The notes beneath the pieces are model-generated. The model saw only the letters and a program-made list of their open reading frames with translations, had not been told where the DNA came from and did not search any database. Shown here piece after piece: positions 28,698 through 63,083 of a DNA stretch of 64,000 nt. The translations under genes were made by a program, and so were the position numbers. Source of the DNA: Actinomycetota bacterium (GTDB lineage Bacteria > Actinomycetota > Acidimicrobiia > Acidimicrobiales > JAJPHD01); contig JAJPHD010000010.1 of assembly GCA_021325455.1 (NCBI GenBank), positions 257,248 through 321,247 on the forward strand, written 5' to 3'. Each line of letters opens with the position of its first letter. Position 1 is the stretch's first letter.

Positions 28698-30092
28698 TCA
28701 CTTCCCCTTTCCGTGGCCATGGCCGTGGTGGCCAGGCGGACCCCCCGCGGGCGGACCCGGCTTGGGAGGAGCAGAAGGGGAGGTCGTGGTGGGGGCGGTG
28801 GTGGTCGTGGTCGTGGGGGCGGTGGTCGTGGGGGCGGTGGTCGTGGGAGCCACCGTGGTCGTGGTGGTGGGGGCCGTCGTCGTGGTGGTGGGGGCGGTGG
28901 TGGTCGTGGTGCTGCTCGGGGTTCCTCCCCTCCCGCTCCCCGCCCCCCCGGAGCCCAGCCAGCTGGCCAGGACGGCTGCCACCAGCACGGCCAGCAGGCA
29001 GGCCAGGATGACCCGGAGGAGATAGCGGGCCGGGCGGGGCAGGCGTCGCCTCCCTCCCCCGGGACCGCCGGAGGATGGGGAGGCGGCGGAGGCGCTGCCG
29101 GCCAGGGGCAGCGTGGCCTCCTCCAAACGGGACGTGGAGGGCTCCATGGGGACGGTCGGGGGTGGGGAGGCCAGGGGCTGGGTGGCACCTGGGTCGCCCG
29201 GGAGGCCTACAGGCAGGGCGATGGTGTCGGCGTCGGCGGACCCGCTCAGCACGGCGGCCATCTGGCTGGCGGTGGCGAACCGGGAGGCCGGGTCCAGGGC
29301 CAGGGCCCCCTCCACGGCGGCCACCATCCCGGGGCTGAGCCCGGCCCGCAGGTCGGTCAGGGAGGGCCTCTCCCCCTGGCGCACGGCCAGGGCCACGGAC
29401 AGGGGAGTCTCGCCCCTGAACGGCTTGGTGGCCGTCAGGGCCTCGTAGAGGACCACGCCCACCGACCACAGGTCCGAGCGCGCAGTGGCAGGGTGCCCGT
29501 CTATCCGCTCCGGAGCTAAGTACCCCGGGGTGCCGATGAGGAGGTTGGTGGCGGTGAGGTCGGCTCCGCCCGCGGGCGTCTCCAGCCCCTTGGCTATCCC
29601 GAAGTCCGCCACCTTCACGTTGCCGTCCCCGTCCCACAAGATGTTGGCCGGCTTCACGTCCCGGTGCACCAGCCCCGCGCTGTGGGCCGCCTCCAGCGCC
29701 GCCAGGACCTGGAGGCCGACCTGGCGGACCGTGGCCTCGTCCATGGGGCCCTTCCCGATGTCATCGGCCAGGCTGGCCCCCGGGAGGCGCTCCATCACGA
29801 TCCAGGGGCGTCCCGCGTCCTCGCCCGTGTCGTACACAGCCACCACGTGGGGGTGGGCCAGGCGGGCCGCCAGGCGGGCCTCGGCCTCGAAGCGGGCCCG
29901 GAAGCCGGGGTCGGCGGCCAGGTCTCCCCGCAGCAGCTTGAGGGCCACCTGCCGCTCGAGGCGCTCGTCCCGCGCCTCCCACACCTCTGCCATCCCCCCC
30001 CGGCCCAGCAGGCGCAGGGCCCGGTAGCGGCCGGCGACCAGGAAGCCCTCACCAGACGCGGGCCCACCCCGGCTCCCGCCCGGATCGCTCAT
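28698..30092 (-). CDS. Ser/Thr protein kinase with one TM segment and an extracytoplasmic Thr/Pro-repeat tail
   Basis: GRGGMAEVW, VALK, HRDVKPANIL, DFGIAK and GTPGYLAPE are present. The start is ATG 30092. The upstream 179 codons of the ORF are antisense to mobA. Confidence 0.9.
   Translation of the reverse strand: MSDPGGSRGGPASGEGFLVAGRYRALRLLGRGGMAEVWEARDERLERQVALKLLRGDLAADPGFRARFEAEARLAARLAHPHVVAVYDTGEDAGRPWIVMERLPGASLADDIGKGPMDEATVRQVGLQVLAALEAAHSAGLVHRDVKPANILWDGDGNVKVADFGIAKGLETPAGGADLTATNLLIGTPGYLAPERIDGHPATARSDLWSVGVVLYEALTATKPFRGETPLSVALAVRQGERPSLTDLRAGLSPGMVAAVEGALALDPASRFATASQMAAVLSGSADADTIALPVGLPGDPGATQPLASPPPTVPMEPSTSRLEEATLPLAGSASAASPSSGGPGGGRRRLPRPARYLLRVILACLLAVLVAAVLASWLGSGGAGSGRGGTPSSTTTTTAPTTTTTAPTTTTTVAPTTTAPTTTAPTTTTTTAPTTTSPSAPPKPGPPAGGPPGHHGHGHGKGK
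28781..28915. repeat. imperfect tandem nucleotide repeats encoding (T)nAP units inside the kinase gene
   Basis: GGTGGTCGTGG(G/T)GGC-type units on the plus strand correspond to TTTTTAPTTTTTAPTTTTTVAPTTTAPTTTAPTTTTTTAP. Confidence 0.8.
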
Positions 30093-30176
30093 GGGCACCC
30101 CCGGGAGGCACCCTCGGCGGGGCTGGGCCCTGCCTGCTGGGTGCCCGTCACCGCTCCCCGGGGGCACAATGCGGCC

Positions 30177-30776
30177 ATGGACGCTCCCGTGGACGGGGTG
30201 GCCGGCCTCCTCCTCACCGGCGGCCGGAGCCGGCGCATGGGGACCGACAAGGCCAGGCTGCGGATCAACGGCGAGCCGGCGGCCGAGCGCCTCGGCCGCC
30301 GGCTGGCCCGGGTGACCAACCCCGCCCTGGAGGTGGGACAGGCCATCTCGGGGCTGCCGCCGGTGCCCGATCCCGGTGAGGGCCCCCTCGTGGCCGTGGG
30401 GGCCGGCGCGGTGGCACTGGCGGAGCGGGGCCATAACGGGCCGGCACTGGTGCTGGCCTGCGACCTGCCCCTGGTGGGTGAGGCACTCCTGCGCCTGCTG
30501 GCGGGCTGGCCCTCCACCGCTACGGTCGTCCCCGTGGTCGAGGGCCAGCCGCAGTTCCTCTGTGCCCGGTTGTCCCCGGCGGCCCTGGCCGCCGCCGGCC
30601 GCCTGGCGGGCTCGGGCACCCGCCGCCACCGCAGCATGAAGTCCCTCATGGCCACCGTTCCCGTCACCTGGCTCGGGCCATCGGAATGGGGGGCAGTGGC
30701 AAGCGCCCGGGACTTCGCCGACACCGACAGCCCGGCCGACCTGGGGGGCCTGGGGCTGGACTGGACGCCGGGGTGA
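30177..30776 (+). CDS. mobA: molybdenum cofactor guanylyltransferase
   Basis: LLLTGGRSRRMGTDKA and the LACDLP motif are present. The start is ATG 30177. Confidence 0.85.
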   Translation: MDAPVDGVAGLLLTGGRSRRMGTDKARLRINGEPAAERLGRRLARVTNPALEVGQAISGLPPVPDPGEGPLVAVGAGAVALAERGHNGPALVLACDLPLVGEALLRLLAGWPSTATVVPVVEGQPQFLCARLSPAALAAAGRLAGSGTRRHRSMKSLMATVPVTWLGPSEWGAVASARDFADTDSPADLGGLGLDWTPG

Positions 30777-31741
30777 CCAGCGGGCAGGGCGGGGCTCCGC
30801 CGGCCGGGCCCGGTCCCGGCCCTCGAGGCCCCCGAGTGGGGCTCACCGCCGGACTGGACGCCGACCGGCGGCCGGCCACCCCGGTGCAGGTCCTCGTCCT
30901 CTCGGCCGGCTCCTGGCACCGGAGGCCCGACCAGGTGGTGACCGAGGAGCCCCTGGAGATCCGGGCCGGCGGCCCGGGTCAGGAGCCCCTCCCCGTCGCC
31001 GTGACGATGAGGACCCCCGGGCATGACTTCGAGCTGGCGGCGGGGTTCCTCCTCTCCGAGGGCCTCATCGCCCCGGCCGGCCCGGAGGGCTCCTCCTCCC
31101 CGGGGCCGCCCCAGGTGCGGGCGATCCGCTACTGCGACCTGCCCCCTGGCGAAGTGCAGCGCTACAACATCGTGAGCGTCACCCTGACGACGCCCCTCGA
31201 CGAGAGGTCCGCCGAGCGCCGGAGGACGGTGTCCACCGCCTCCTGTGGCCTGTGCGGCGTTGCCACCCTGGCCGACCTGGAGCGCCGGTGCCACCCCGTA
31301 GCCCCAGGGCCCGTGCTCCCCGCCTCCCTCCTCCTCGGTCTCCCGGAGGCCCTGCGCCGCTCCCAGCGCCTGTTCAGACGCACCGGGGGCCTGCACGCCG
31401 CCGGGCTGTTCGGGCCCGACGGCGCCCTCGTGGCCCTGCGGGAGGACGTGGGCCGCCACAATGCCCTGGACAAGCTGATCGGGCGGGCCCTCCTCGACCA
31501 CCAGCTTCCCCTGGCCGGCCACGTGGTGGCCCTCTCGGGCCGTATCGGCTACGAGCTGGTACAGAAGTCGGCCCTCGCCGGCGTGCCGGTCATCGTGGCC
31601 GTGGGAGCTCCCTCCAGCCTGGCCGTGGCCACCGCCCACCACCTCGGGATCACCACCGTGGGGTTCGTCCGCCCCGGCCGGGCCAACATCTACACCCACC
31701 CGGAACGGGTCGCGACCGAGCCGGGCCGCTGCGACTCCTGA
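30773..31741 (+). CDS. fdhD: formate dehydrogenase accessory sulfurtransferase
   Basis: MRTPGHDFELAAGFL, SCGLCG and EDVGRHNALDK are present. The GTG at 30773 forms GTGA with the mobA stop. Confidence 0.9.
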   Translation: MTSGQGGAPPAGPGPGPRGPRVGLTAGLDADRRPATPVQVLVLSAGSWHRRPDQVVTEEPLEIRAGGPGQEPLPVAVTMRTPGHDFELAAGFLLSEGLIAPAGPEGSSSPGPPQVRAIRYCDLPPGEVQRYNIVSVTLTTPLDERSAERRRTVSTASCGLCGVATLADLERRCHPVAPGPVLPASLLLGLPEALRRSQRLFRRTGGLHAAGLFGPDGALVALREDVGRHNALDKLIGRALLDHQLPLAGHVVALSGRIGYELVQKSALAGVPVIVAVGAPSSLAVATAHHLGITTVGFVRPGRANIYTHPERVATEPGRCDS

Positions 31742-47532: not shown

Positions 47533-48417
47533 TCAGCCGCCCCTGATGGCGCGGGGATCGGTGGCAGGAAGCGGGTCGTCCAGGGGTACGGCCATGGTGG
47601 GGCGGAGGTTCCTGTGCTCCTCCCCGCTCAGGCGGACCGCCGTGCCCAGGGCGAAGAACTCGATGGCCCGCGACCCCCAGGCATGCCCCCTCTCCGTGGT
47701 GGTCACCCCGACCACGCCCTCGGCTCCCAGCTGGCGGGCCTGGGACTGCAGGCGCTCCATGGCCAGCTCCCTCGCCTGGTAGAAGGCCTGGGTGAAGGGG
47801 ACGAGCTCCACGTTCTGGCCCTGGCGGCCCATCCACTGGCCCAGCCCCTGGCGGCCCACCCGGTAGACGCAGCTGCCCATCACCAGTCCCAGAGGCTCGT
47901 AGCCGGCCCGCTGGAGGAGGTAGAAGTCCTGGCCCGAGAGGTCGCTCGTGAACGGGCGGCGCTGTCGGCGTGGCAGGGCGCCGGGCCCGCCCGCCACTGC
48001 CGTGCCTATGGCCACGAACTCCATCAGGTGACGGGCCGGTTCGAACATGTCGATCGTGAGCCGGACCCCCACCACCCCGTCCCCCCCGACCTGGCGGCAG
48101 TCGGCGATGAGCCGGTGGGTCACCTCGTTGCGGGCCTGAGCCATGGCCTCCGAGAGGGTCGTGATCTCGCTGCTCTGGCCGAGGCCGGTGAAGGTGTAGC
48201 CCACGTGGTAGATGGCGCTGGCCATGACCAGCCCCCTCGGCTCGTACCCCACCTCCTTGAGGAGGATGGCCTCGTCCACGCTGAGGTCGGAGGAGAAGAC
48301 CCGTCCCTCGTGGCGCTCTCCCCTGCCCTCCCGCAGGCAGGCAATGGCGGCGTCGGCGGGCGCCTCCGCCACCGGCCCCCGGTCCTGCCGGTCGAGGGGT
48401 TCCCGCCCGGTGCTCAC
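47533..48417 (-). CDS. tandem double YbjQ/UPF0145-like domain protein (paralogue 3)
   Basis: Two modules start at FSSDLSVDEA and FTSDLSGQDF. Each ends ...LGA(E)GVVGV...EF.A(I/L)GTAV. The GTG start forms GTGA with the paralogue 2 stop. Confidence 0.8.
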   Translation of the reverse strand: MSTGREPLDRQDRGPVAEAPADAAIACLREGRGERHEGRVFSSDLSVDEAILLKEVGYEPRGLVMASAIYHVGYTFTGLGQSSEITTLSEAMAQARNEVTHRLIADCRQVGGDGVVGVRLTIDMFEPARHLMEFVAIGTAVAGGPGALPRRQRRPFTSDLSGQDFYLLQRAGYEPLGLVMGSCVYRVGRQGLGQWMGRQGQNVELVPFTQAFYQARELAMERLQSQARQLGAEGVVGVTTTERGHAWGSRAIEFFALGTAVRLSGEEHRNLRPTMAVPLDDPLPATDPRAIRGG

Positions 48418-49490
48418 CGCCGGTCCCGGAGGCGCATCATGGCAAGCGGGGCCTCGGGCATGGGGGCAGCGCTGAAGCGGCGCACGGCGGTGCCGAGGCT
48501 GAACAGCTCCAGCAGCTTGGCCTCCCCGGGGAGCTCGTGGATGGAGAACTCGATCTCGACCCCGATCACGCCGTCACCCACCTCGGCGGCCTCCCTTTCC
48601 AGGCGGTCCACGGCAATCTCCCGGCAGCGCCGGGCCGCCTCGCTGATCTGGGGGAGCTCGGTGTTGGACCACGATCCCATGCGCCATTCCATGCCGCACC
48701 CCGGGTCCACCTCGATGGCGCAGATGCCCATGACCAGGCTGCAGGGCACATACCCCGAGCCGATCAGCTTGCCCAGCTCCTGGCCGCTCAGGTGGGAGGT
48801 GAAGGGGAACGGGAGCGGCGGGGCCCCGGGGCGGTGGATGGCCGTGCCCACGGCGGTGAACTCCACCAGGCCGGCCACCCCTTCGGGCCGGGTGAAGCGC
48901 AGCCTCACCCCCGCCACGCCGTGGGCCCCGAGCTCCTGGGCCTCCTCCGCCATGCGGGACATGGCCAGGTTGCGGGCCTCCACCATGCCCCGTTCGTGCA
49001 GGGTGTGCTCCCAGTTGTAACCGGTGCGCATGTCCTCGTGGGCGAAGCGGTGAGGGCAGTACCACACGCTCGAGTAGCCGCCCCCGGCGGCGCCGAAGTA
49101 CCTGTAGCCCCACTGGGCCCCTATCCGGTACACGGAGCTGCCGAGGACCATGCCCAGGGGCTCGAAGCCGGCGGCCCGCACCGCCGCCAGCTCCGCGACC
49201 GAGAGGTCGCTGGTCCAGGCCCCTCCCTCCGCTTCGGCATCGGCCAGGCGCTGGCGGGCCGAAACCGGCAGCCCCCCGTGCTCCAGGGCTTCGATGCTCG
49301 CCTCCGCCCGGGCCTGCCCGGCGGCCTCGTCCAGCATCCCGGAGGGCTCGCCCCGCTCCACCCGCCCGGGGGGCGGGCCCTGCCGCCCGGGCGCCTCCGG
49401 CGCCCTCCCCCCTCCCCGGGCGGCAGGTCCCTCTCCGGGGACCATGCCCCCGGCGCCATCTCCCCGGCCGGAGGGCCGGCGGTCGTCCAT
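48414..49490 (-). CDS. tandem double YbjQ/UPF0145-like domain protein (paralogue 2, divergent, with insertions)
   Basis: Modules start at WTSDLSVAEL and FTSHLSGQEL. The ATG overlaps the paralogue 1 stop (TGATG). The first ~50 codons are G/P/R-rich, so an alternative start at Met52 (49337) is possible. Confidence 0.75.
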   Translation of the reverse strand: MDDRRPSGRGDGAGGMVPGEGPAARGGGRAPEAPGRQGPPPGRVERGEPSGMLDEAAGQARAEASIEALEHGGLPVSARQRLADAEAEGGAWTSDLSVAELAAVRAAGFEPLGMVLGSSVYRIGAQWGYRYFGAAGGGYSSVWYCPHRFAHEDMRTGYNWEHTLHERGMVEARNLAMSRMAEEAQELGAHGVAGVRLRFTRPEGVAGLVEFTAVGTAIHRPGAPPLPFPFTSHLSGQELGKLIGSGYVPCSLVMGICAIEVDPGCGMEWRMGSWSNTELPQISEAARRCREIAVDRLEREAAEVGDGVIGVEIEFSIHELPGEAKLLELFSLGTAVRRFSAAPMPEAPLAMMRLRDRR

Positions 49491-50308
49491 CAGCGGTCCA
49501 ACGAGAGGACCATTCGGGGCTGGTCGATCACGTGGTCGGGCCTGAGCGGCCGCACGGCAGTGCCCACGGCCAGGAACTCGATCACGTGGCTGCCCCAGAA
49601 GTGGGACTTCTCCACCAGCTGGACGCCCACTATCCCCTCGGCTCCGAGCTTCTCGGCCTCCTCCTGCATCCGCTCCATGGCCAGCTCACGGGCCTCGTAG
49701 AGGGCCTGGGTGAAGTTGGGCATCTCGGTGTTCTGGCCGATCTGGCCCAGCTTGGCACCGATGCCCTGGTGGGCCACGTGGTAGACACAGGTGCCCATCA
49801 CCAGACCGAGGGGCATGTAGCCCGACTGGACGAGGGTCCAGAAGTCCTGGCCCGACAGGTCACTGGTGAACGGCATGCCCGTGGGGGCCCGCCAGCTCGT
49901 CCCGTCCGAGGACGAGACGGCGGTGCCGATGGCGATGAACTCGGCCGAGTGCTGCCCCCACTCGTAGAAGTTGATGTCCAGGCGGACGCCGACCACCCCG
50001 TCCGCCCCGAGCAGGTTGGCCTCCTCCTCCATCCTGGTCATGGCCAGCTCCCGGGCCGTGTACATGGCCTGGCTGAGGGTGGTGAGCTCCTGGTTCTTGC
50101 CCCAGCTCTTGCGCTGCAGGCCGATGTGGTAGATGGAGCTGCCGAAGACCAGTCCCCTCGGGTCGAAGCCGGCCTCCTTCACGAGCAGGAACTCGTTGAC
50201 GGACAGGTCGGAGGTGAACAGGCCCCGGCGGCCCTCCCCGGTCTCGGACTCCTCGAGGCGGCGGAGGGCATCGGGGGGGAGGCCGGCCGTGGGGTCCGTC
50301 GTGGCCAT
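49490..50308 (-). CDS. tandem double YbjQ/UPF0145-like domain protein (paralogue 1)
   Basis: Modules start at FTSDLSVNEF and FTSDLSGQDF. I prefer ATG 50308 (GAAGGAG 9 nt upstream) over TTG 50317. Confidence 0.8.
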   Translation of the reverse strand: MATTDPTAGLPPDALRRLEESETGEGRRGLFTSDLSVNEFLLVKEAGFDPRGLVFGSSIYHIGLQRKSWGKNQELTTLSQAMYTARELAMTRMEEEANLLGADGVVGVRLDINFYEWGQHSAEFIAIGTAVSSSDGTSWRAPTGMPFTSDLSGQDFWTLVQSGYMPLGLVMGTCVYHVAHQGIGAKLGQIGQNTEMPNFTQALYEARELAMERMQEEAEKLGAEGIVGVQLVEKSHFWGSHVIEFLAVGTAVRPLRPDHVIDQPRMVLSLDR

Positions 50309-50332
50309 GGAGGGCAACTCCTTCTCGGGTCG

Positions 50333-50725: not shown

Positions 50726-50784
50726 ACAGGAGCGATGGTAGCCCGCGTAGAATCGGGACCGCCGACCCGCGGAACGGAGTGCCG

Positions 50785-51900
50785 ATGAGCGTCTTCAAGC
50801 GTCTGTCCCTCGTCTTCCAGCAGAAGGCGAACGCGGCCCTGGACAAGGCCGAGAACCCGGCCGAGGCCCTCGACCTCTCCTACCAGAAGATGGTGGAGCA
50901 GCTGCAGCAGGTGCGCCGCTCCATCGCTGACGTGCTGACGGCCCAGAAGCGCCTCGAGGCCCAGAAGGCGACCCTCCAGGCCCAGTACGACAAGCTCCAG
51001 GGCCAGGCCCGCCAGGCGCTGAGCCAGGGCCAGGAGCAGCTGGCCCGCACCGCCCTGGAGCGGGCCCAGATCGTCTCGGCCCAGGCCGAGGGGCTGGGGC
51101 CCCAGATAGAGAACCTCCGCAACCAGGAGAGCCAGCTCGAGCTGACGGGCCAGAAGCTGGCGGCCAAGGTCGAGGCGTTCCGCATGCAGAGGGACACCAT
51201 GAAGGCCCAGTACACGGCGGCCCGGGCCAGCACCCAGGCCATCGAGGGGATCTCGGGCCTCTCCGAGGAGATGGCCGACGTGTCCATGATGGTCGAGCGG
51301 GCCCAGGACAAGGTCAACAGCCTCCAGGCCCGGGCCCAGGCCGTGGGCGAGCTGGCCGACTCGGGCGTGCTCGACATGACCGCCATAGGCCAGGCTCCCG
51401 GGGACGACATCGACCGCCAGCTCCGCCAGATCAGCAGCGGCCAGGCTGTGGACCAGCAGATGGCAGCCCTCAAGGCCGAGCTGGGCCAGGGAGGTGGGCC
51501 CCCTCCCTCGGGAGAGCTCGAGGAGGGGACGCTGGTGGTCCGCATCGCCGGCAACGACCAGTACCGCCTCCCCGTCTCGATCCGCCCTGCCCTGGACGGG
51601 CTGGACGCCGCTCTGGTGCGGGCCATCGACTCCAACGACGCCGAGGGGTTCGCCCAGTGCACGGCCGAGCTGATCAAGCTCATCCACTCGACGGGGCAGA
51701 AGCTCGAGCGCGACGACCTGCGCTCCTCGGACCTCATCGTGCCCTCGGCGGACATGACAGTGGAGGACGCCAAGCGCCTCATGGCCGAAGGCGGTGGCAC
51801 GACCGGCCCGGGCGGCGCCGGACAGGGTCCGGGGGCCTCCGGGACGGGCCCTTCCCCCGAGGGGAGCGCTACGGGCGCCGGCCAGCCCGGAGCCGGGTAG
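50785..51900 (+). CDS. pspA: PspA/IM30 (ESCRT-III-like) protein with an extra C-terminal globular domain and a G/P-rich tail
   Basis: MSVFKRLSLVFQQKANAALDKAENPAEALDLSYQKM... is typical of the PspA coiled-coil region (~220 aa). The ATG has GGAG 6 nt upstream, and a TAGAAT -10 candidate lies at 50747-50752. Confidence 0.9.
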   Translation: MSVFKRLSLVFQQKANAALDKAENPAEALDLSYQKMVEQLQQVRRSIADVLTAQKRLEAQKATLQAQYDKLQGQARQALSQGQEQLARTALERAQIVSAQAEGLGPQIENLRNQESQLELTGQKLAAKVEAFRMQRDTMKAQYTAARASTQAIEGISGLSEEMADVSMMVERAQDKVNSLQARAQAVGELADSGVLDMTAIGQAPGDDIDRQLRQISSGQAVDQQMAALKAELGQGGGPPPSGELEEGTLVVRIAGNDQYRLPVSIRPALDGLDAALVRAIDSNDAEGFAQCTAELIKLIHSTGQKLERDDLRSSDLIVPSADMTVEDAKRLMAEGGGTTGPGGAGQGPGASGTGPSPEGSATGAGQPGAG

Positions 51901-54026: not shown

Positions 54027-54487
54027 GCCCTCCGGGCCCGGGGCGGCCTGGCCGGGACAGGGCCAGGCCGGACCGCCCTCTGGCGGTCGAGCCAGGCCTG
54101 CAGCATGACGGCGGCGGCGGCCTCGTCCACCACCGGCCGCTGGCGCCGGGCCGTCCGCCCCGCCCCCCGCAGGGCCCGGCTGGCGGTCACCGTCGAGAGC
54201 CGCTCGTCGTGGAGCTCGACAGGGACAGGAAGGACGCCCCGCAGGGCCGCCGCCTCCTCCTCGGCGGCCAGGGCAGCCGGTCCCCTCGTGCCGTCCAGAG
54301 ACAGCGGGAGCCCCACCACCACCACCTCACCCCCCAGCTCCTCCACCTGGCGGGCGACCACAGCGTGGTCGTGGGCCTGCTCCCCGCAGCGCTGGAGCAC
54401 TCCGGCAGGCATGGCCAGTGTCCCGTCCCGGTCGCTCACCGCCACCCCGATACGGCGCTCGCCCAGGTCGAGGCCCACAGCCCTCAC
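54023..54487 (-). CDS. ruvX: Holliday-junction-resolvase-like putative pre-16S rRNA nuclease (YqgF)
   Basis: GLDLGERRIGVAVSD and DERLSTV are present. The GTG at 54487 forms GTGA with the alaS stop. The rest of ORF 54023..55180 is antisense to alaS. Confidence 0.88.
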   Translation of the reverse strand: MRAVGLDLGERRIGVAVSDRDGTLAMPAGVLQRCGEQAHDHAVVARQVEELGGEVVVVGLPLSLDGTRGPAALAAEEEAAALRGVLPVPVELHDERLSTVTASRALRGAGRTARRQRPVVDEAAAAVMLQAWLDRQRAVRPGPVPARPPRARRA

Positions 54488-57153
54488 TGCCGGGTGGCGG
54501 CCCCGCCCCCGGAGGGCGGGACCTCGCCGGGCGGCCCCTGTCGCCCGTCCGGTCCCCCGTCGCCGGCCCGGCCCAGCGCCGCCCGAACCTGCTCGAGGGC
54601 CTCCTCGATGCGCCCCACCTGGCGCCCACCGGCGATGGCCACCTCGGGGTCGCGCCCACCCCCGCCTCCCACGGTGCGGGAGGCCTCGGCGAGGAGCTCC
54701 GATGCCACCAGGCCGCTCCCCCTCCTCACCGCTGCGACCAGCGCCACGCCCTGCCCGTCGGGTGAGCCGATGAGGACGGCCCCCCGCATGCCGGGCCGGT
54801 CCCGCACCCCGAGGGCCAGGTCGCGCATCTGGTCCCGGGGCAGGCCGTCCCGGCGGGCCACCACGACGTCCCCACCGGCTTCGGCCACCAGGGCCTCGGC
54901 CTCCTGGCGGAGGGCCTGGGCCCGCAAGGCCCTGGCCTCCTCGGTCGCGGCCCGGGCCTGGGCCGACAGCCGCTCGATCCGCTCGGGGACCTCCTCCACG
55001 GTGGCGGCCCTCACCAGCTCGGCCGCCCGGCCCAGCAGCTCCTCCTCGTGGCGCAGGTGGGCCAGCGAGGGGGCACCGGTCAGAGCCTCGATCCGCCTGG
55101 TGTTGGCCCCGATCGACCCCTCCGAGACGATCCGGAACGGCCCGATGGCGCCCAGGGTGTCCACGTGGGTCCCCCCGCACAGCTCCACCGAGGAGTGCCC
55201 GGCGTGCACCACCCGGACCCGCTCGCCGTACTTGTCGCCGAAGAAGGCAATGGCGCCGACCCGGTCGGCCTCGGCCCGCTCCATCTCCTCGGTGACCACC
55301 GGAGGGTTGCCGATCACCGAGGCGTTGACCAGGTCCTCGACCTTGTCCAGCTCCGCACGGGTCACGGGGCCGAAGTGGCTGAAGTCGAAGCGGAGCCGGT
55401 CGGGGGCGACCAGCGAACCTTGCTGCTTGACGTGGGGCCCGAGCACCTCGCGCAGTGCCCAGTGCACCAGGTGGGTCCCGGTGTGGTTCCTCCGGATGGC
55501 ATCCCGTCGTTCGACGTCCACCTGAGCCAGAGCCTCCTGCCCGGGGCCGATGGTGCCCTCCACCACACGGGCGCTGTGGCGGATGAGCCCCGGCAGGGCG
55601 TAGGTCGTGTCCAGCACCTCGGCCCGCCCGCTGGGGGTGACCAGGGTTCCGGTGTCGCCCACCTGGCCCCCGGCCTCGGCATAAAAGGGGGTCCGGTCCA
55701 AGAAGACCTCCACCATCGCCCCCGGGCCCGCCTCCAGGACATGGAGCACCCGGCCCGTGGCCGAGCAGGTCTGGTAGCCGAGGAACTCGGTGGTGCCGAA
55801 CTGCTCCAGCAGCTCCCGATAGGCGGGGAGGTGCTCGCTCTCCTCCTCCGTCCCGAGCCCAGCCTGGCGGGACCGGGCCCGCTGCTCGGCCATGGCCGCC
55901 TCGAAGCCGGCCACGTCCACGCCCACCCCCCGCTCGGAGGCGATCTCCCGGGTGAGGTCGATGGGGAAGCCGTAGGTGTCGTGCAGGCGGAAGGCCACGT
56001 CCCCGCCCAGCTGGGCGACACCCTTGGCCAGCTCCTCGTCCAGGATGGCCGACCCGGCCCGCAGGGTCTGGTGGAAGCGCTCCTCCTCCCTGGCCAGCAC
56101 GCCCTGGATGAAGTCCAGCTGCCGGCGGAGCTCGGGGTAGGCGACCTCCATCGTGCCGGCCACGGCGGCAGCCAGAGCGGGCATGACCGCGGTGGTGACG
56201 CCCAGCTGATAAGCCTGGCGCACGGCCCGGCGGATCAGCCGGCGCAGCACGTAGCCCCGCCCCTCGTTGGAGGGGAAGACCCCGTCCCCGATCAGGAAGG
56301 TCGTGGACCGGGCGTGGTCGGCCAGGATGCGCAGGGCCACATCAGCCTCGCCGTCGGCCCCGTAGCGCCTACCGGTCACCGAGCAGGCCGTCTCCACTAT
56401 GGGGGCCAGGACGTCGGTGTCGAACACCGAGTCGGTGCCCTGGAGGAGACCGAGGATCCTCTCCAGGCCCGCACCCGTGTCGATGTTCTTCTTGGGCAGG
56501 TCCGCCAGAGTCCCGTCAGGCTGGCGGTCGTACTGGGTGAAGACCAGGTTCCAGAACTCGAGGTAGCGGTCACCCCCGCCGTGAGCCGGGCCGCCGGGCT
56601 CCCCGTAGGCCTCGCCCTTGTCGAAGTGGATCTCCGAGCACGGCCCGCACGGGCCGGGGCCCCCCATGTCCCACCAGTTGTCCTCCCCGAGACGTTGGAC
56701 CCGCTCGGGAGGCACCCCCACGGAATCGACCCAGATGGCCTCGGCCTCGTCGTCGCTCTCGTGCACCGTGACCCACAGGCGGTCGGGGTCCATCCCGAGG
56801 ACCTCGGTCACCAGGTCCCAGGCCCAGGGGATGGCCTCGGCCTTGAAGTAGTCCCCGAAGCTGAAGTTCCCGAGCATCTCGAGAAAGCTCATGTGGCGCC
56901 GGGTCCGCCCCACGAGCTCGATGTCGCTCTTGGCCCCGCTCACCCGCAGGCACTTCTGGACGGAGACCAAACGGGTCGCCGGGGGGATCTCCTCGCCCAC
57001 GAAGTAGCGCTTGAAGGGCTGCATGCCCGCCACCGTGAACAGGAGCCCCGGGTCGTGGGAGACCAGGCCGGCGGAGGGCATGGCCAGGTGGCCCCGCTCC
57101 TCGAAGAAGGAGGTATAGGCCCTGCGCAGCTGGTTGGCATCCATCCGGTGCAT
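54484..57153 (-). CDS. alaS: alanine--tRNA ligase
   Basis: FTVAGMQPFK is present, as are the editing-domain HTGTH and CGGTH motifs and a C-terminal DHHA1-like region. Confidence 0.97.
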   Translation of the reverse strand: MHRMDANQLRRAYTSFFEERGHLAMPSAGLVSHDPGLLFTVAGMQPFKRYFVGEEIPPATRLVSVQKCLRVSGAKSDIELVGRTRRHMSFLEMLGNFSFGDYFKAEAIPWAWDLVTEVLGMDPDRLWVTVHESDDEAEAIWVDSVGVPPERVQRLGEDNWWDMGGPGPCGPCSEIHFDKGEAYGEPGGPAHGGGDRYLEFWNLVFTQYDRQPDGTLADLPKKNIDTGAGLERILGLLQGTDSVFDTDVLAPIVETACSVTGRRYGADGEADVALRILADHARSTTFLIGDGVFPSNEGRGYVLRRLIRRAVRQAYQLGVTTAVMPALAAAVAGTMEVAYPELRRQLDFIQGVLAREEERFHQTLRAGSAILDEELAKGVAQLGGDVAFRLHDTYGFPIDLTREIASERGVGVDVAGFEAAMAEQRARSRQAGLGTEEESEHLPAYRELLEQFGTTEFLGYQTCSATGRVLHVLEAGPGAMVEVFLDRTPFYAEAGGQVGDTGTLVTPSGRAEVLDTTYALPGLIRHSARVVEGTIGPGQEALAQVDVERRDAIRRNHTGTHLVHWALREVLGPHVKQQGSLVAPDRLRFDFSHFGPVTRAELDKVEDLVNASVIGNPPVVTEEMERAEADRVGAIAFFGDKYGERVRVVHAGHSSVELCGGTHVDTLGAIGPFRIVSEGSIGANTRRIEALTGAPSLAHLRHEEELLGRAAELVRAATVEEVPERIERLSAQARAATEEARALRAQALRQEAEALVAEAGGDVVVARRDGLPRDQMRDLALGVRDRPGMRGAVLIGSPDGQGVALVAAVRRGSGLVASELLAEASRTVGGGGGRDPEVAIAGGRQVGRIEEALEQVRAALGRAGDGGPDGRQGPPGEVPPSGGGAATRQ

Positions 57154-57201
57154 GTCGGCCCAAGCCTACTGCCGGGGTGGCTCCCTCTACCCTGGCAGGG
57201 C

Positions 57202-58614
57202 GTGCGCGTGCTCCTGATCTCCACCTACGAGATGGGCCACCAGCCCCTCCACGTGGCCTCTCCCGCCGCCGCCCTGCTCCGGGCCGGCCACGAGGTGCGC
57301 GCCCTGGACCTGGCCGTGCAGTCCTGGCCCGAGCACGCCAGCGAGGCGCTCTCCTGGGCGCAGGCCGTGGGCCTTTCCGTCCCCATGCACACGGCCATGC
57401 GACTCGCCGTCCGGCTGGCCGGTGCCCTCCGCCGGGCCCGCCCCGAGCTGCCCATCTGCCTCTACGGGCTATACGCCCCGGTCAGCCAGGACCTCACCGT
57501 GGGCCGGCTGGTCGACCGGGCCATTGCCGGCGAGTACGAACCGGCCCTCGTCCAGTGGGTGGACGAGCTGGCGGCGTCGGGGCCGTCCTCCGGGGGGAGA
57601 GGCGCCACCATCCACCTCGATCGGAGCCCGTTCAGCCTGCCTGCCCGCCACCTGCTCCCGCCCCTGGCCCGCTATGCCCACCTGGAGGTGGAGGGGGAGC
57701 GCCGGCAGGTGGGGTACGTGGAGGCCAGCCACGGCTGCTCCCACCGTTGCCGCCACTGCCCGGTACCGGCCGTATACGGGGGCCGCACCCGGGCCCTCCC
57801 CGAGGACACCGTGCTGGCCGACGTCGACCAGTTGGTGGGCATGGGGGCCCGCCACATCACCTTCGGGGACCCTGACTTCCTGAACCGACCCCAGCACGCC
57901 CGCCGCCTGGCCGGGGCCGTCCACCACGCCTTCCCCGACCTCACCTTCGACGTGACGGTGAAGGTCGAGCACATCCTGCGCCACGAGGGGCTGTGGGGAG
58001 CGATGGCCCGGATGGGTTGCCTGTTCGTGGTGTCGGCCTTCGAGTCCACCGACGATGCCACCCTGGGCCGCCTGGAGAAGGGCCACACCGTGGCCGACGA
58101 GTCCCGGGCCCTTGCCATCCTTCGCTCCGAGGGCATAGAGGTGCGGCCGTCGTGGCTGCCCTTCACTCCCTGGACCACCATCGGCCAGGTGCTGGACCTG
58201 GTCGACTTCGTAGCCGCCCACGACCTGGTGGCGAGCGTGGACCCGGTGCAGTACTCGATACGGCTCCTGCTGCCCCAGGGCTCCCTCCTGCTGGAACGAG
58301 CCGACCTCGCCACCCACCTGGGCCCCTACGATGCCGAAGCCCTCACCTGGACCTGGCGGTCGCCCGATCCCAGGGTGGACGCCCTGCAGAGGGACCTGGC
58401 CGAGCTGGCCGAAGGCGCTGCCAGGGCCGGCGAGCCCATCGAGGCCACCTACGAGCGGGTGCGCCATGCGGTGGCGGCTGCGGCCGGATGGGACCCCCCG
58501 TCCCCGCCGCCGGCGGGAGCCGGCCGGGGGTCCCGGCCGGGGAGGCCCCGGCTCACCGAGCCATGGTTTTGCTGAGCTGAGCCCACCGAGGGCCAGTTCG
58601 GCTCTCTGGGATGA
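57202..58614 (+). CDS. B12-binding-like/radical SAM protein with a C-terminal C-U-A-E-P tail (in-frame TGA at 58573 read as selenocysteine)
   Basis: CSHRCRHC (CxxxCxxC) is present. The ORF-track stop sits in ...EPWFC-TGA-AEPTEGQFGSLG-TGA. The GTG start is at 57202 or 57208. The upstream 718 codons of ORF 55048..58575 are antisense to alaS. Confidence 0.7.
58579..58606 (+). promoter_or_regulatory. candidate bacterial SECIS hairpin
   Basis: It begins 4 nt after the UGA codon. GAG/CUC and CCGAG/UUCGG (with a G-U pair) stems enclose a G-rich apical loop GGCCAG about 17-22 nt downstream of UGA. An alternative pairing is GAGCC/GGCUC. Confidence 0.4.
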
Positions 58615-58682
58615 ACCTCGCTTCGCCGAAGGGGCCCCTCAAGGGCTTCAATGGAGCGGACAGCTAGACAAGGAGGCAGGGC

Positions 58683-59660
58683 ATGACCATGGAGTACCGC
58701 CGGCTGGGTCGATCCGGGCTCAAGGTGAGCGTCCTCGGGTTCGGGTCCTGGGTGACGTTCGGGCCCCAGTTGGACGAGGACCTGGCCACCCGGTGCCTGG
58801 CCGCTGCCTACGAGGGAGGGGTCAACTTCTTCGACAATGCCGAGTCCTACGCCTCCGGGGAGTCCGAGCGCATGATGGGCCAGGCCCTGGCCAAGCTGGG
58901 CTGGCCCCGGCACACCTACGTCGTGACCTCCAAGTTCTACTGGGGGATCCACGAGTCGGTGAACACCAAGAACACCCTCAACCGCAAGTACCTTCTCGAC
59001 GCCATAGACGCCTCGCTGGACCGCTTCGGCCTGGGGTTCGTGGACATCGCCTACTGCCACCGGCCCGACCCCGAGACCCCCGTGGAGGAGACGGTCTGGG
59101 CCATGCACGACATCGTGGCCCGGGGCAAGGCCCTCTACTGGGGGACCTCGGAGTGGAGCGCCGGCGACATCCGCGCCGCCTGGGACATAGCGGACCGCCA
59201 TCACCTCCACAAGCCCGTGGTGGAGCAGCCCGAGTACAACCTCTTGCGCCGGCAGCGGGTCGAGGGCGAGTATGCCCGCCTCTACGAGGACATCGGCCTC
59301 GGGCTCACCACCTGGAGCCCCCTTGCCTCGGGCCTGCTCACCGGCAAGTACGTGGAGGGCATCCCCGAGGGGAGCCGGGCCAGCCTGCCCGGCTACCAGT
59401 GGCTGCGCGACCTCCTCACCGATCCCGAGCGAAATGCCGCCGTCCGGCGCCTGGCCTCCGTCTCCGCCGACCTGGGTTGCTCGCTGGCCCAGCTGGCCAT
59501 CGCCTGGTGCACCCGCAACCCCCGGGTCTCCTCGGTTATAACCGGCGCCAGCCGGGTCGAGCAGGTCCAGGAGAACCTGCGCTCCCTGGACGTGGCGCCC
59601 AAGCTGACCGCCGAGGTGCTGGCGCGCATCGACGAGGCCGTGGGGGACCTGGTGAGCTGA
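58683..59660 (+). CDS. aldo/keto reductase (Kv-beta-like subfamily)
   Basis: [27 protein letters not shown] and an AAGGAGG RBS are present. Confidence 0.9.
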
Positions 59661-59729: not shown

Positions 59730-60917
59730 ATGAGCACCCACCGCAGCCAGAGGTTCGCCACCAGAGCCGTCCACGCCGGGACGGCTCCCCCCGTGGACCA
59801 GGTGCCGGCCAGCGTCCCCATCTACCAGACCTCCACCTGGCGCTTCGACACCTCGGACGACTTTGCCGCCGTCACCTCCTCCGAGCGCCCCGGGCATGTC
59901 TACGGGCGGGGCTACGGGAACCCCACCGTCGAGGCCCTGGAGGCGGCGGTGGCCAGCCTGGAGGAGACCGAGGCCGCCTACGGGTTCTCCTCGGGGATGG
60001 CTGCCATCCATGCCACCGTCACCACCCTGGCCCAGGCCGGGGACCGCATCGTGGCCAGCCGCGCCATCTACGGGGGCACCTATTCCTTGTTCGCCTCGCT
60101 CCTGCCCCGCTACGGGATAGAGGTCAGCTTCGTGGACATCAACGACGAGGCCCAGGTGGCCTCGGCCCTGCCGGGGGCCCGCCTTCTCTACGTCGAGACC
60201 ATCGCCAACCCCCTCATCACGGTGGCCGACCTCGATCGCCTGGGCCAGCTGGCCCGGCAGGCGGGTGCCGTAGCCGTGGTGGACAACACCTTTGCCTCCC
60301 CCTACCTGTGCGCCCCCGCCCGCTACGGGTTCGACCTCGTGGTCCACTCGGCCACCAAGTACCTGGGCGGCCACAGCGACCTGGTAGGAGGGGTGGTGGC
60401 CACCTCCGCCTCCTGGCGCAGGGCGGTGCGGGCGACCACCCTCGATGTGGGCGGGGCCATGGCCCCCTTCGAGGCCTGGCTGTGCCTCCGGGGCCTCGCC
60501 ACCTTGGCCCTGCGCATGGAGCGCCACTGTGCCACCGCTGCCGCCCTGGCCGAGTTGCTGGCCGCCGACAGCCGGGTGACAGCCACCCACTACCCGGGCC
60601 TGGCCGGCGACCCGGGCCACGAGGTGGCCTCACGACAGCTGCGTGCCGGCGGGGGCATGCTGGCCTTCGAGCTGGAGGGGGGACTGGAGGCAGGCGCCCG
60701 CTTCTGCGACAGCCTGGAGGTGGCCTGGATCGGGGCCAGCCTGGGAGGGCCCCACACCCTCGTGGCCCACCCTGCGTCGACCACCCACCGCCAGCTCGAC
60801 CCCGAGGCCCGCAGGGCGGCGGGCCTGGCCGACGGCCTCATCCGGGTGAGCGCCGGCCTCGAGGACCCCGATGACCTCCTCGCCGACTTCTCCCAGGCGC
60901 TGGACAAGGCCACCTGA
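59730..60917 (+). CDS. Cys/Met-metabolism PLP-dependent enzyme (cystathionine gamma-synthase/lyase or O-acylhomoserine sulfhydrylase type)
   Basis: The PLP-lysine motif HSATKYLGGHSD and the C-terminal IRVSAGLED are present. Confidence 0.9.
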   Translation: MSTHRSQRFATRAVHAGTAPPVDQVPASVPIYQTSTWRFDTSDDFAAVTSSERPGHVYGRGYGNPTVEALEAAVASLEETEAAYGFSSGMAAIHATVTTLAQAGDRIVASRAIYGGTYSLFASLLPRYGIEVSFVDINDEAQVASALPGARLLYVETIANPLITVADLDRLGQLARQAGAVAVVDNTFASPYLCAPARYGFDLVVHSATKYLGGHSDLVGGVVATSASWRRAVRATTLDVGGAMAPFEAWLCLRGLATLALRMERHCATAAALAELLAADSRVTATHYPGLAGDPGHEVASRQLRAGGGMLAFELEGGLEAGARFCDSLEVAWIGASLGGPHTLVAHPASTTHRQLDPEARRAAGLADGLIRVSAGLEDPDDLLADFSQALDKAT

Positions 60918-60933
60918 GGGATACCTTTGGCCC

Positions 60934-62334
60934 ATGGCGCCGCTACTCACCTCCTACCTCGAGTCGAACCGCGACCGCATCCTCGAGGAGCTGTTCGACT
61001 GGCTGCGGATACCGAGCATCTCGGCTCAGCCCGAGCATCACGACGACGTGCGCCGCTCGGCCGAGTGGCTGGCCGGGACCATGAAGGCTGCCGGCCTGGA
61101 GACGGTGAGCATCCTCGAGACCCAAGGAGCCCCTGCGGTCTACGGCGAGTGGTGCCACGCCGGGCCGGCCGCCCCCACGGCCCTCGTCTACGGGCACCAC
61201 GACGTCCAGCCCGTCGACCCCCTCGACCTCTGGACCTCTCCCCCCTTCGAGCCGGTCGTCGTGGAGGGCGAGTGCCTGGCCCGGGGCGCCATCGACGACA
61301 AGGGGCAGGTCCTCTACCAGGTGGAGGCCGCCCGGGGCCTCTTGTCGGAGACGGGCCGCCTGCCCGTCAACCTGAAGCTCCTGGTCGAGGGGGAGGAGGA
61401 GTCGGGCAGCCCCCACTTCGAGGCCCTGCTGCGGGCCGAGGCCGAGCGGCTGGCTTGTGACCTGGTGGTGGTGTCCGATACCGGGATGTGGGCCCCCGAC
61501 GTGCCCTCGGCCTGCATCGGCATGCGGGGCTTGGCCGCCTTCGACCTCACCGTCCGCACGGGCACCATAGACCTCCACTCCGGCCAGTACGGGGGAGGGG
61601 TCCCCAACCCCGCCCACATCCTCGCCCGCTTGGTGGCCAACCTCCACGACGGGGAGGGCCGGGTGGCCATCCCCGGCTTCTACGACGACGTGCGGCCCCT
61701 CAGCCAGTCCGAGCAGGCCTCGCTGGCCGCCCTGCCCTTCGACGAGGAGGAGTGGAGGTTGGCCGCCGGGGTCGGGGCCCTCACCGGAGAGGCGGGCCGC
61801 ACCACCCTGGAGCGCATCTCCACCCGGCCCACCTGCGACGTGACGGGCCTCACCGTGGGCTACGGCGGGCCGGGGTCGAAGACCATAGTGCCGGCCCAGG
61901 GCAACGCCAAGGTGACCTTCCGCCTGGTGCCCGACCAGGACCCGGGCAAGGTGGAGGAGGCCTTCCGGGCCTGGGTGGCGAGCCAGGTGCCCCCCGCGAC
62001 CGAGGTGGAGGTGGAGAGCCACGGAGGGGTGGCGCCCGCCCTCACCCCTGTGGACCACCCGGCCATGGGGGCCCTGTCCCGGGCCATCGAGGCCGTATGG
62101 GGCAAGGCGCCCCTGCTCACGAGGGAGGGCGGCAGCGGCCCCGAGGAGGCGCTCAGCCGGGTCCTCTCCGCTCCTCTCCTGTTCCTCGGGGTGGGCCTGC
62201 CCGGCGACCGCATCCATGCCCCCAACGAGCGCATGGTGATGGGCCAGTTCTGGAAGGGGCTCCTCGCCGCGGGCGAGCTCTGGCGCGAGCTGGGGGAGCT
62301 GGGCGCAGCCGGCGTGAGTGGACGAGAGGCGTGA
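60934..62334 (+). CDS. M20-family dipeptidase
   Basis: LRIPSISAQPEH, YGHHDVQP, GAIDDKG and EGEEESGS are present. The start is ATG 60934. Confidence 0.88.
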   Translation: MAPLLTSYLESNRDRILEELFDWLRIPSISAQPEHHDDVRRSAEWLAGTMKAAGLETVSILETQGAPAVYGEWCHAGPAAPTALVYGHHDVQPVDPLDLWTSPPFEPVVVEGECLARGAIDDKGQVLYQVEAARGLLSETGRLPVNLKLLVEGEEESGSPHFEALLRAEAERLACDLVVVSDTGMWAPDVPSACIGMRGLAAFDLTVRTGTIDLHSGQYGGGVPNPAHILARLVANLHDGEGRVAIPGFYDDVRPLSQSEQASLAALPFDEEEWRLAAGVGALTGEAGRTTLERISTRPTCDVTGLTVGYGGPGSKTIVPAQGNAKVTFRLVPDQDPGKVEEAFRAWVASQVPPATEVEVESHGGVAPALTPVDHPAMGALSRAIEAVWGKAPLLTREGGSGPEEALSRVLSAPLLFLGVGLPGDRIHAPNERMVMGQFWKGLLAAGELWRELGELGAAGVSGREA

Positions 62335-63083
62335 GGGGGAGGGACGCCATTTCGGGCCCCCACCTGCCGGGAGGCCACGAGTGGGTGAGCTTCGAGGACG
62401 AGGAGGAGGACCGCACCTGGGTCTTCGACGTCACCTTCCTCCTGTCCCGCTGGGCCTGCATCTACGGCCAGGGCTGCCAGGGCGTGCTCACCGAGCCGGC
62501 CCCCGAGCTGGAGGAGGGGTGCTGCTCGTACGGCGCCCACTTCACCGGCCCCGAGGACCAGGAGAGGGTGGAGCGGGCCGCCGAGGGGCTCGGTTCCGAG
62601 GAGTGGCAGCACCGGCGCCGGGGGCGGGCGGGGGTGACCAGGCGGACCCGCTCGGGCGAGACCATGACCCGGATCGTGGACGGGGCGTGCATCTTCCTGA
62701 ACCGCCCCGGCTTCCCAGGAGGAGCGGGTTGCGCCCTGCACCGGGCCGCCCTGGCCCGAGGGCTTGCCCCCATGGAGCTGAAGCCCGACGTCTGCTGGCA
62801 GCTCCCCCTCAGGAGGGAGGACGAGGTGGGCGCCGGTGGGCACGTGACGTCCACGGTGCGCCAGTGGGAGCGCCGGCACTGGGGGGCGGGAGGGGCTCAG
62901 TTCGCCTGGTGGTGCACGGAGGCAGCCGAGGCGTTCCGGGGGCCGGCTCCGGTCTACCGGGCCATGGGGGCCGAGCTGGAGGCGCTGGTGGGCCCGGCTG
63001 CCTACGCCAGAGTGCGGCGCTACCTGGACTGGAGGGCGGGATCGGTCTCTCCCTTGCCTCATCCCGCCCGGCGCCGGCGCTGA
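62331..63083 (+). CDS. conserved Cys-rich hypothetical protein (possible Fe-S/Zn binding)
   Basis: The GTG at 62331 forms GTGA with the M20 stop. Cys motifs are WACIYGQGCQGV, GCCSYGAHF and GACIFLNRPGFPGGAGCALH. The family name was not recalled. Confidence 0.65.
   Translation: MRGRDAISGPHLPGGHEWVSFEDEEEDRTWVFDVTFLLSRWACIYGQGCQGVLTEPAPELEEGCCSYGAHFTGPEDQERVERAAEGLGSEEWQHRRRGRAGVTRRTRSGETMTRIVDGACIFLNRPGFPGGAGCALHRAALARGLAPMELKPDVCWQLPLRREDEVGAGGHVTSTVRQWERRHWGAGGAQFAWWCTEAAEAFRGPAPVYRAMGAELEALVGPAAYARVRRYLDWRAGSVSPLPHPARRRR

Follow-up and report, generated by a model that had tools for sequence, protein, structure and literature searches.

Within a 64-kb stretch of an Actinomycetota genome (contig JAJPHD010000010.1, GC content 72.6%, here referred to as the window), we analyzed a gene for a radical S-adenosylmethionine (SAM) protein, the letters of which, from 57202 to 58614, were read on the + strand. 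The in-frame UGA at 58573–58575 of this gene is almost certainly read as selenocysteine (Sec), and the gene, with a probability that we put at roughly 0.9, codes for a selenoprotein of 470 aa that belongs to NF040546, the radical SAM family with a CUAEP/CCAEP tail. At the DNA level, TGC at 58570–58572 (Cys) is followed by TGA at 58573–58575, by GCT GAG CCC ACC GAG GGC CAG TTC GGC TCT CTG GGA, and by TGA at 58612–58614. The in-frame reading is thus ...LTEPWFC-[UGA]-AEPTEGQFGSLG-stop, letter for letter the C-[TGA]-A-E-P reading up to TGA 58612 that a first-pass annotation of the window had described. Counted from GTG 57202, Cys457 and Sec458 lie 13 and 12 residues, respectively, before the C-terminus. 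The elements of the gene are:

57202–58614, + strand: predicted full coding sequence (CDS) of the radical SAM selenoprotein, 470 aa from GTG 57202, alternative start GTG 57208
58570–58572, + strand: TGC codon of Cys457, which opens the vicinal Cys-Sec pair, from the sequence and an alignment of 80 loci
58573–58575, + strand: in-frame UGA, almost certainly Sec458, aligned with TGC or TGT in 67 of the 80 loci and with TGA in 13
58588–58606, + strand: selenocysteine insertion sequence (SECIS) hairpin, GAGGGCC (58588–58594), loop AGUUC (58595–58599), GGCUCUC (58600–58606)
58612–58614, + strand: TGA, the true stop, 6 nt after the hairpin, where the NF040546 profile ends

Sec and Cys codons in homologous genes

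To compare the UGA codon across species, one genome per species of the Genome Taxonomy Database (GTDB) was scanned, which yielded 80 homologous loci with 53–64% identity. Most of them are from metagenome-assembled genomes of Acidimicrobiia, Thermoleophilia (Solirubrobacterales), Nitriliruptoria and Chloroflexota. A TGC stands opposite the UGA in 55 loci, a TGT in 12 and a TGA in another 13; the in-frame tail C[C/U](A/S)EPTxxQ at and after this codon is conserved in all 80. The comparison with homologs that the first-pass annotation had pointed to thus came out in favor of its reading, with a Cys codon in 67 loci and the AEP tail conserved behind it. The TGA-type genes are scattered on a rough neighbor-joining tree of the core domain. 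In addition, a syntenic relative (L081, from JGI 3300054962) with 84% protein identity shares both the TGA and the hairpin; its tail is AEPTEGQFGSLRGSGQ.

Gene callers cut the protein short at the UGA, as the first-pass annotation had anticipated. The JGI call (P0001) runs from 57208 to 58575 and comprises 455 aa ending in ...PWFC; read through the UGA from one and the same start, the protein gains 13 residues over what gene callers give. The same was observed for the best 120 relatives in the protein database, 54 of which end in ...WFC, while 66 carry CC[AS]EP. The 54 proteins ending in ...WFC are gene-caller truncations, so that 45% of the best database relatives, like the JGI call, have lost the Cys-Sec pair.

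Two further observations concern the set of loci itself. A 14th "C*AEP" match, in L021, turned out to be a chance match elsewhere in that locus and was not counted. Two Cys-type paralogs (L029 and L042) lie on one contig (CAVZBW010000005.1), about 146 kb apart, and thus in one genome.

A SECIS hairpin downstream of the UGA

The hairpin at 58588–58606 begins 12 nt after the UGA and consists of a 7-bp stem and a 5-nt loop, the apical loop being 19 nt from the UGA. A perfect 7-bp hairpin can be formed in all 14 TGA-type sequences (the 13 loci and the window), with local folding energies from −11.3 to −16.0 kcal/mol, and also in a 15th sequence, L081; in one of the loci (L019) the stem is shifted by one base and the loop has 4 nt. 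In contrast, all seven pairs are present in none of the 67 Cys-type sequences, which have 3.7 pairs on average and local energies between 0 and −10.7 kcal/mol. Even Cys-type genes that encode the same peptide lack the hairpin, namely L001 and L004 (TAGQFGSLG) and L020 (TAGQFGSLD). Because the seven pairs are missing in these same-peptide Cys-type genes, the RNA structure constrains codon choice only in combination with the UGA. The difference extends to the whole region, as the 54 nt after the codon fold at −21.0 kcal/mol in TGA-type versus −16.2 kcal/mol in Cys-type sequences at equal GC content (p = 3e-4).

The stem is also supported by covariation. Across the TGA-type sequences 94.9% of the cells pair, compared with 83.5% in column shuffles; a pairing this high did not occur in any of 500 shuffles. 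Compensatory changes were found at two pairs, pair 2 (AU in 7, CG in 5 and GC in 2 sequences) and pair 5 (GC in 8, AU in 5), and pairing falls to 58–64% when the partner columns are slid. Taken on its own, the hairpin of the window has a folding energy of −13 kcal/mol (z −3.3), which 0 of 200 shuffles match.

The model of the bacterial SECIS (bSECIS) specifies a loop of 3–9 nt, a stem of 4–16 bp and a G in the first two loop positions, together with a distance of 16–37 nt from the UGA to the loop and a minimum free energy (MFE) of −7.5 kcal/mol or lower (PMC13188914). The window hairpin fits this model in all respects (loop 5 nt, stem 7 bp, G at position 2, 19 nt, −13 kcal/mol). The loop of the E. 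coli fdhF SECIS is of the GGUC type. The window loop differs from it (AGUUC, with G at position 2 and then U), a conserved bulged U is absent, and the lower stem is weakly conserved. What is shared with the fdhF-type SECIS, and with the bSECIS consensus (Zhang and Gladyshev), is a stem-loop inside the CDS directly after the UGA. The lower stem, 58582–58585 with 58607–58610, is possible in the window; because its comparative support is weak, with about 57% of the cells pairing across relatives, it is kept as optional.

A hairpin within 58579–58606 had already been proposed in the first-pass annotation. This region does contain a real SECIS-type element, present in TGA-type genes only, but neither the proposed pairing nor the distance of 4 nt from the UGA was right, the actual distance being 12 nt. 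In the pairing implied there (58579–58583 with 58600–58604), 88.6% of the cells pair without covariation, and all 500 of 500 shuffles reach this value. The MFE fold of 58570–58625, in which the UGA region pairs with 58594–58602, was likewise rejected: 82% of its cells pair, without compensatory change and not above shuffles. Both this whole-region fold and the first-pass pairing compete for the 3' arm of the hairpin.

Family membership and domain architecture

For profile scoring, the UGA-encoded residue was written as C. The protein reaches 575 bits on the NCBIfam model NF040546, "CUAEP/CCAEP-tail radical SAM (seleno)protein", with residues 3–467 aligned to profile positions 1–467 of 468. NF040546 is an equivalog model with a curated cutoff of 500 bits. 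The family named in the first-pass annotation does exist, and the protein passes its cutoff. The form truncated at Cys457 scores 554.6 bits and reaches precisely to profile position 457; positions 458–467 are taken by the residues encoded behind the UGA, which add about 20 bits, and the tail by itself matches profile positions 439–467. The traits of NF040546 are present: a score above the cutoff, the C-[U/C]-A-E-P tail (WFC-UGA-AEP, 58564–58584), the CxxxCxxC core and a B12-binding-like domain. NCBI names close homologs (P0008, P0021, P0025, P0100) by the title of NF040546. The protein is organized as follows:

57214–57552, + strand: N-terminal Rossmann-type B12-binding-like domain, residues 5–117 (PF02310, 35.6 bits, cutoff 32.1)
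57724–58143, + strand: radical SAM core, residues 175–314 (PF04055, 50.5 bits)
57736–57759, + strand: CxxxCxxC motif CSHRCRHC, residues 179–186, three [4Fe-4S] ligands, Cys invariant in 54 homologs
58486–58542, + strand: variable Pro/Gly-rich linker from core to tail, GWDPPSPPPAGAGRGSRPG, without consensus in the 54-sequence alignment
58543–58608, + strand: conserved C-terminal tail of about 20 residues, RPRLTEPWFC-U-AEPTEGQFGSL, conserved in the 80 loci and matching NF040546 positions 439–467

NF040546 and the window protein agree in the order of their domains, in the CxxxCxxC motif and in a C[U/C]AEP at the C-terminus with Sec as its second residue, and no family-level difference was observed. 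In an alignment of 54 Cys-type homologs, L, E, W, F, C, C, E, P and Q of the tail do not vary, and neither does one further core Cys within GCLFVVSAFE. An AlphaFold model of a Cys-type homolog with 73% identity (P0003) has a mean predicted local distance difference test (pLDDT) score of 89.7. In this model the score is below 50 for linker residues 433–439 and rises to 81 for segment 441–450, just before the Cys pair; the model suggests that the linker is probably disordered. The nearest solved folds are AprD4, TsrM and OxsB, with AprD4 as the best, and AprD4 was also the closest match in a sequence search of the PDB, at E = 1e-5. AprD4 has a B12-binding-like domain and is not known to use cobalamin.

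Alternative readings of the UGA

Several observations weigh against the reading of the UGA as Sec, or limit its evidence. A search for selA, selB, selD and tRNA-Sec gave nothing in the 64 kb of the window, in a further 16 kb or so of flank on the same contig, in the 13 TGA-type loci or in the sequence of L081; because it covers less than 3% of a genome, the negative result is uninformative. An Rfam scan of 58400–58800 with E up to 10 gave noise only, without any family matching the hairpin. Because the hairpin overlaps the codons of conserved residues, the protein accounts for a part of its conservation; this share is addressed by the Cys-type control described above. Finally, the approximately nine Sec/Cys changes that parsimony requires were counted on a neighbor-joining tree that is rough.

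Should the UGA be a genuine stop, the product would have 457 aa, and the likeness of the downstream sequence to the tail would be the relic of a recent Cys-to-stop mutation, that is, of C-terminal decay. This would agree with the gene callers, which end the gene there, with TGA being the commonest stop codon in the window, and with the failure to find Sec machinery in about 80 kb. However, the TGA recurs in L081, in 13 species representatives of the GTDB and in 54 of the 120 best relatives in the protein database, from lineages scattered over the tree, and the 13 representatives, the window and L081 all keep the frame and the invariant AEPTxxQ. Moreover, a relic would decay, not co-vary, whereas the TGA-type hairpin shows compensatory changes and is missing in Cys-type genes. 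A genuine stop is therefore very improbable. Slightly less credit still is due to a UGA that is decoded as a standard amino acid (by near-cognate Cys, Trp or Gly insertion or in a reassigned code) or that is a sequencing or assembly error for TGC. A single base separates TGA from TGC, but an error is hard to reconcile with two independent assemblies, JGI 3300005524 (330,833-bp contig) and ENA ERZ27279669 (380,520 bp), which are identical in the 60 nt around the UGA and in 13 kb around the gene. A reassigned code is at odds with the 40 of the 56 genes called in the window that end in TGA, including this very gene, whose own stop follows 39 nt later; the genetic code is therefore standard. Near-cognate read-through, in turn, would leave a TGA-specific hairpin at SECIS distance without a role.

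For the reading as Sec, the established bacterial mechanism suggests how the codon would be recoded. With the UGA in the ribosomal A site, SelB-GTP-Sec-tRNA(Sec) would dock on the hairpin, Sec458 would be inserted, and the ribosome would melt the hairpin and read 12 more codons. Termination would take place at UGA 58612, which is not followed by such an element. With selenium or SelB in short supply, the product would end at Cys457 and lack the Cys-Sec pair. A second 7-bp hairpin (GGGGCCC-CUCAA-GGGCUUC, 58631–58649, + strand) lies 16 nt after the terminal UGA; it has no G at the start of its loop, its z of −0.5 is ordinary for the GC content, and its region is deleted in L081.

Possible functions of the Cys-Sec tail

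The closest characterized relative of the protein is ArsL. ArsL, an enzyme of arsinothricin biosynthesis, cleaves SAM to a 3-amino-3-carboxypropyl (ACP) radical and forms a C-As bond, and its RCCLKC tail, which binds As(III) through three Cys, is required for the product, not for SAM cleavage (10.1101/2024.02.01.577332; 10.64898/2026.04.29.721666). The two proteins are homologous over the whole B12-like domain and radical SAM core, and both end in a conserved Cys-rich motif that opens with a vicinal pair. By analogy, the tail might act as a swinging arm, the thiolate/selenolate pair of which would hold a soft atom (a metal, metalloid or chalcogen) and bring it to the site of SAM and the [4Fe-4S] cluster; as a ligand or nucleophile, Sec would be superior to Cys. 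The Cys-Sec pair is probably the business end of the enzyme, and such a substrate-presenting arm is the function that we tentatively favor, at somewhat less than even odds. In Haft's preprint, NF040546 is listed among the rare CU-motif selenoproteins, and the CU motif is tied to heavy-metal chemistry.

Some results speak against carrying the analogy with ArsL over to the tail. On the ArsL profile NF040542 the protein scores 270.7 bits over residues 3–400, short of the 450-bit cutoff, and the alignment does not reach the tail. The ArsL tail, RCCLKC (CCxxC), offers three ligands, whereas the C-U-A-E-P of the window protein offers two chalcogen ligands, and ArsL is not known as a selenoprotein. 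Arsenic genes were not noticed among the recurrent neighbors of the 80 loci, and there is no arsM or ars gene near the window gene.

The explanation ranked second, after the substrate-presenting arm, is that the tail Cys-Sec would form a redox-active selenenylsulfide on a flexible arm, similar to the GCUG of mammalian thioredoxin reductase (TrxR), which would shuttle electrons to or from the active site or resolve a covalent intermediate; the gene encodes a selenoprotein under both explanations. A vicinal C-U or C-C pair behind a variable linker of low model confidence is what such an arm would have, and interchange of Sec and Cys is typical of redox-active sites. The number of chalcogen ligands, only two compared with the three at the As(III) site of ArsL, and the lack of visible metal or metalloid genes nearby point in the same direction. 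On the other hand, the Cys-rich tail of the closest characterized homolog binds substrate and is not a redox tail, a partner reductase is not encoded nearby, and in Haft's grouping the CU-motif proteins stand with metal and organometallic chemistry. The redox function is thus possible but rather doubtful.

Both ideas have counterparts outside the family, which are analogies only. The TrxR GCUG and the C-terminal Cys-Cys of MerA likewise are flexible arms that end in an adjacent Cys-Sec or Cys-Cys pair, but the two enzymes have unrelated flavoprotein folds. The TrxR arm shuttles electrons, and the MerA arm passes a soft metal to a buried active site. Sec close to the C-terminus of a radical SAM protein is also known from TIGR04167, the Geobacter-type radical SAM/Cys-rich-domain selenoprotein, which is listed in the selenoproteome review (PMC13188914). 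TIGR04167 differs, however, in being a separate family with a GxxU motif, and it is not among the profile matches of the window protein.

A more specific and distinctly speculative extension, which we regard as unlikely as it stands, is that the CUAEP/CCAEP proteins are ArsL-like, non-canonical radical SAM enzymes. They would join a carbon radical, be it the ACP group of SAM or another, to a non-arsenic soft atom held by the arm. The product would be a new organo-chalcogen or organo-metalloid amino acid. If this were true, the ATP-grasp enzyme of the L-amino-acid-ligase type encoded directly upstream in about half of the lineages would build the amino acid into a small peptide, which would be a metabolite or an antimetabolite, and the pathway would be common among soil Actinomycetota and Chloroflexota.

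Relation to previous knowledge

The selenoprotein gene described here is a correct identification of an already known kind, because NCBI curates the family and names homologs accordingly; the recoding itself will be no surprise to a selenoprotein specialist. Apart from the database entry, the family is mentioned in the searchable literature only in one sentence of Haft's 2022 preprint, as uncharacterized, and it goes unnamed in the main text of the 2026 prokaryotic selenoproteome review (PMC13188914). What is newly added are the covariation-supported SECIS, the Sec/Cys statistics and the neighborhood data. The SECIS as defined for the family (7 bp, loop AGUUC, 12 nt after the UGA) offers a means of detecting and correcting truncated genes. 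In soil Actinomycetota and Chloroflexota this is a large family, with repeated switching between Cys and Sec, and among the relatives of ArsL, which forms a C-As bond, it is the nearest. Because it is large, related to ArsL and scarcely mentioned in the searchable literature, it is a reasonable target for enzymology.

Start site and overlapping reading frames

Two start codons are candidates, GTG 57202 and GTG 57208. The latter, which is the choice of JGI, lies 8 nt 3' of GGCAGGG, and for these two reasons it is at least as likely as GTG 57202. A listed open reading frame (ORF) of 1175 aa (55048–58575, + strand) is an antisense shadow of alaS fused to the radical SAM gene, alaS itself being encoded at 54484–57153 on the minus strand. 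Antisense shadow ORFs of this kind are a common artifact in DNA with 72.6% GC.

A terminator-like match was noticed at 58550–58562, or 58550–58569 in its wider span (+ strand), GGCTCACCGAGCC followed by ATGGTTTTGC, within the conserved RLTEPWF codons before the UGA. It is probably a coincidental by-product of these codons.

Gene neighborhood

The neighborhoods of the homologous genes were compared for the 71 of the 80 loci with enough upstream sequence. In 34 of them, an ATP-grasp gene of the L-amino-acid-ligase type (PF13535 and PF18603 LAL_C2) lies directly upstream on the same strand, and it often overlaps the radical SAM gene, sometimes by 4 nt, or ends within about 30 nt of it (e.g., L047 4730–6001, L007 4720–5979). 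The pair looks like an operon, and this linkage is the best lead to the function of the family. A gene for an Nfu/NifU-type Fe-S carrier is located divergently upstream in 41 of the 71 loci, and a DUF169 (COG2043) gene is present in 26; examples from these flanks are L031 4027–4686 (minus strand) and L061 4470–5198. The window copy differs from its NF040546 relatives in this respect, as none of these three common neighbors occurs in the window.

Instead, the window gene adjoins the divergent alaS on one side and is followed on the other by these genes:

58683–59660: aldo/keto reductase
59730–60917: methionine-gamma-lyase-like pyridoxal phosphate enzyme
60934–62334: M20 peptidase
62331–63083, + strand: Rv0495c/DUF3109-like Cys-rich gene

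The Rv0495c/DUF3109-like gene has 70% identity with the gene that comes immediately after the radical SAM gene in L001, L004, L018 and L054; in the window, three genes lie between the two. The gene order of the window is shared by L081 only. A conserved linkage with alaS, which a first clustering had indicated, was an artifact of shadow ORFs in high-GC DNA, and with better gene calling only L081 remained.

Farther away, three tandem YbjQ_1 paralogs ("putative heavy-metal-binding") are encoded at 47533–50317 (minus strand), beside a PspA/PspAA gene at 50779–51900, an arrangement that recurs in L081. On the same contig, past the left edge of the window (L086 17481–21621), genes for a transporter of the energy-coupling factor (ECF)/CbiQ type and for a NicO nickel/cobalt transporter lie about 5–9 kb outside the window; they have no evident link to the radical SAM selenoprotein.

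Selenium-related context of the window

As a hint at selenium use, the first-pass annotation had pointed to mobA and fdhD in the window. The fdhD gene is indeed present (30773–31741, + strand), but what had been taken for mobA is a mobA-like ORF (30177–30776, + strand) with a GGRSRRMG motif that scores only about 55 bits, below all cutoffs; it overlaps the start of fdhD by 4 nt. A catalytic subunit of formate dehydrogenase was not seen in the window. The mobA/fdhD argument is therefore weak and circumstantial. The 40 TGA-terminated genes of the window were also screened for coding-like in-frame extensions, and no other selenoprotein candidate was found; two such extensions (at the pntA/pntB and the YbjQ genes) are neighboring genes that share the frame by chance. 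The call of a PknB-like kinase gene (28698–30434, minus strand) is probably too long at its 5' end. Genes for MshD and WhiB, which are characters of Actinomycetota, were found as well.

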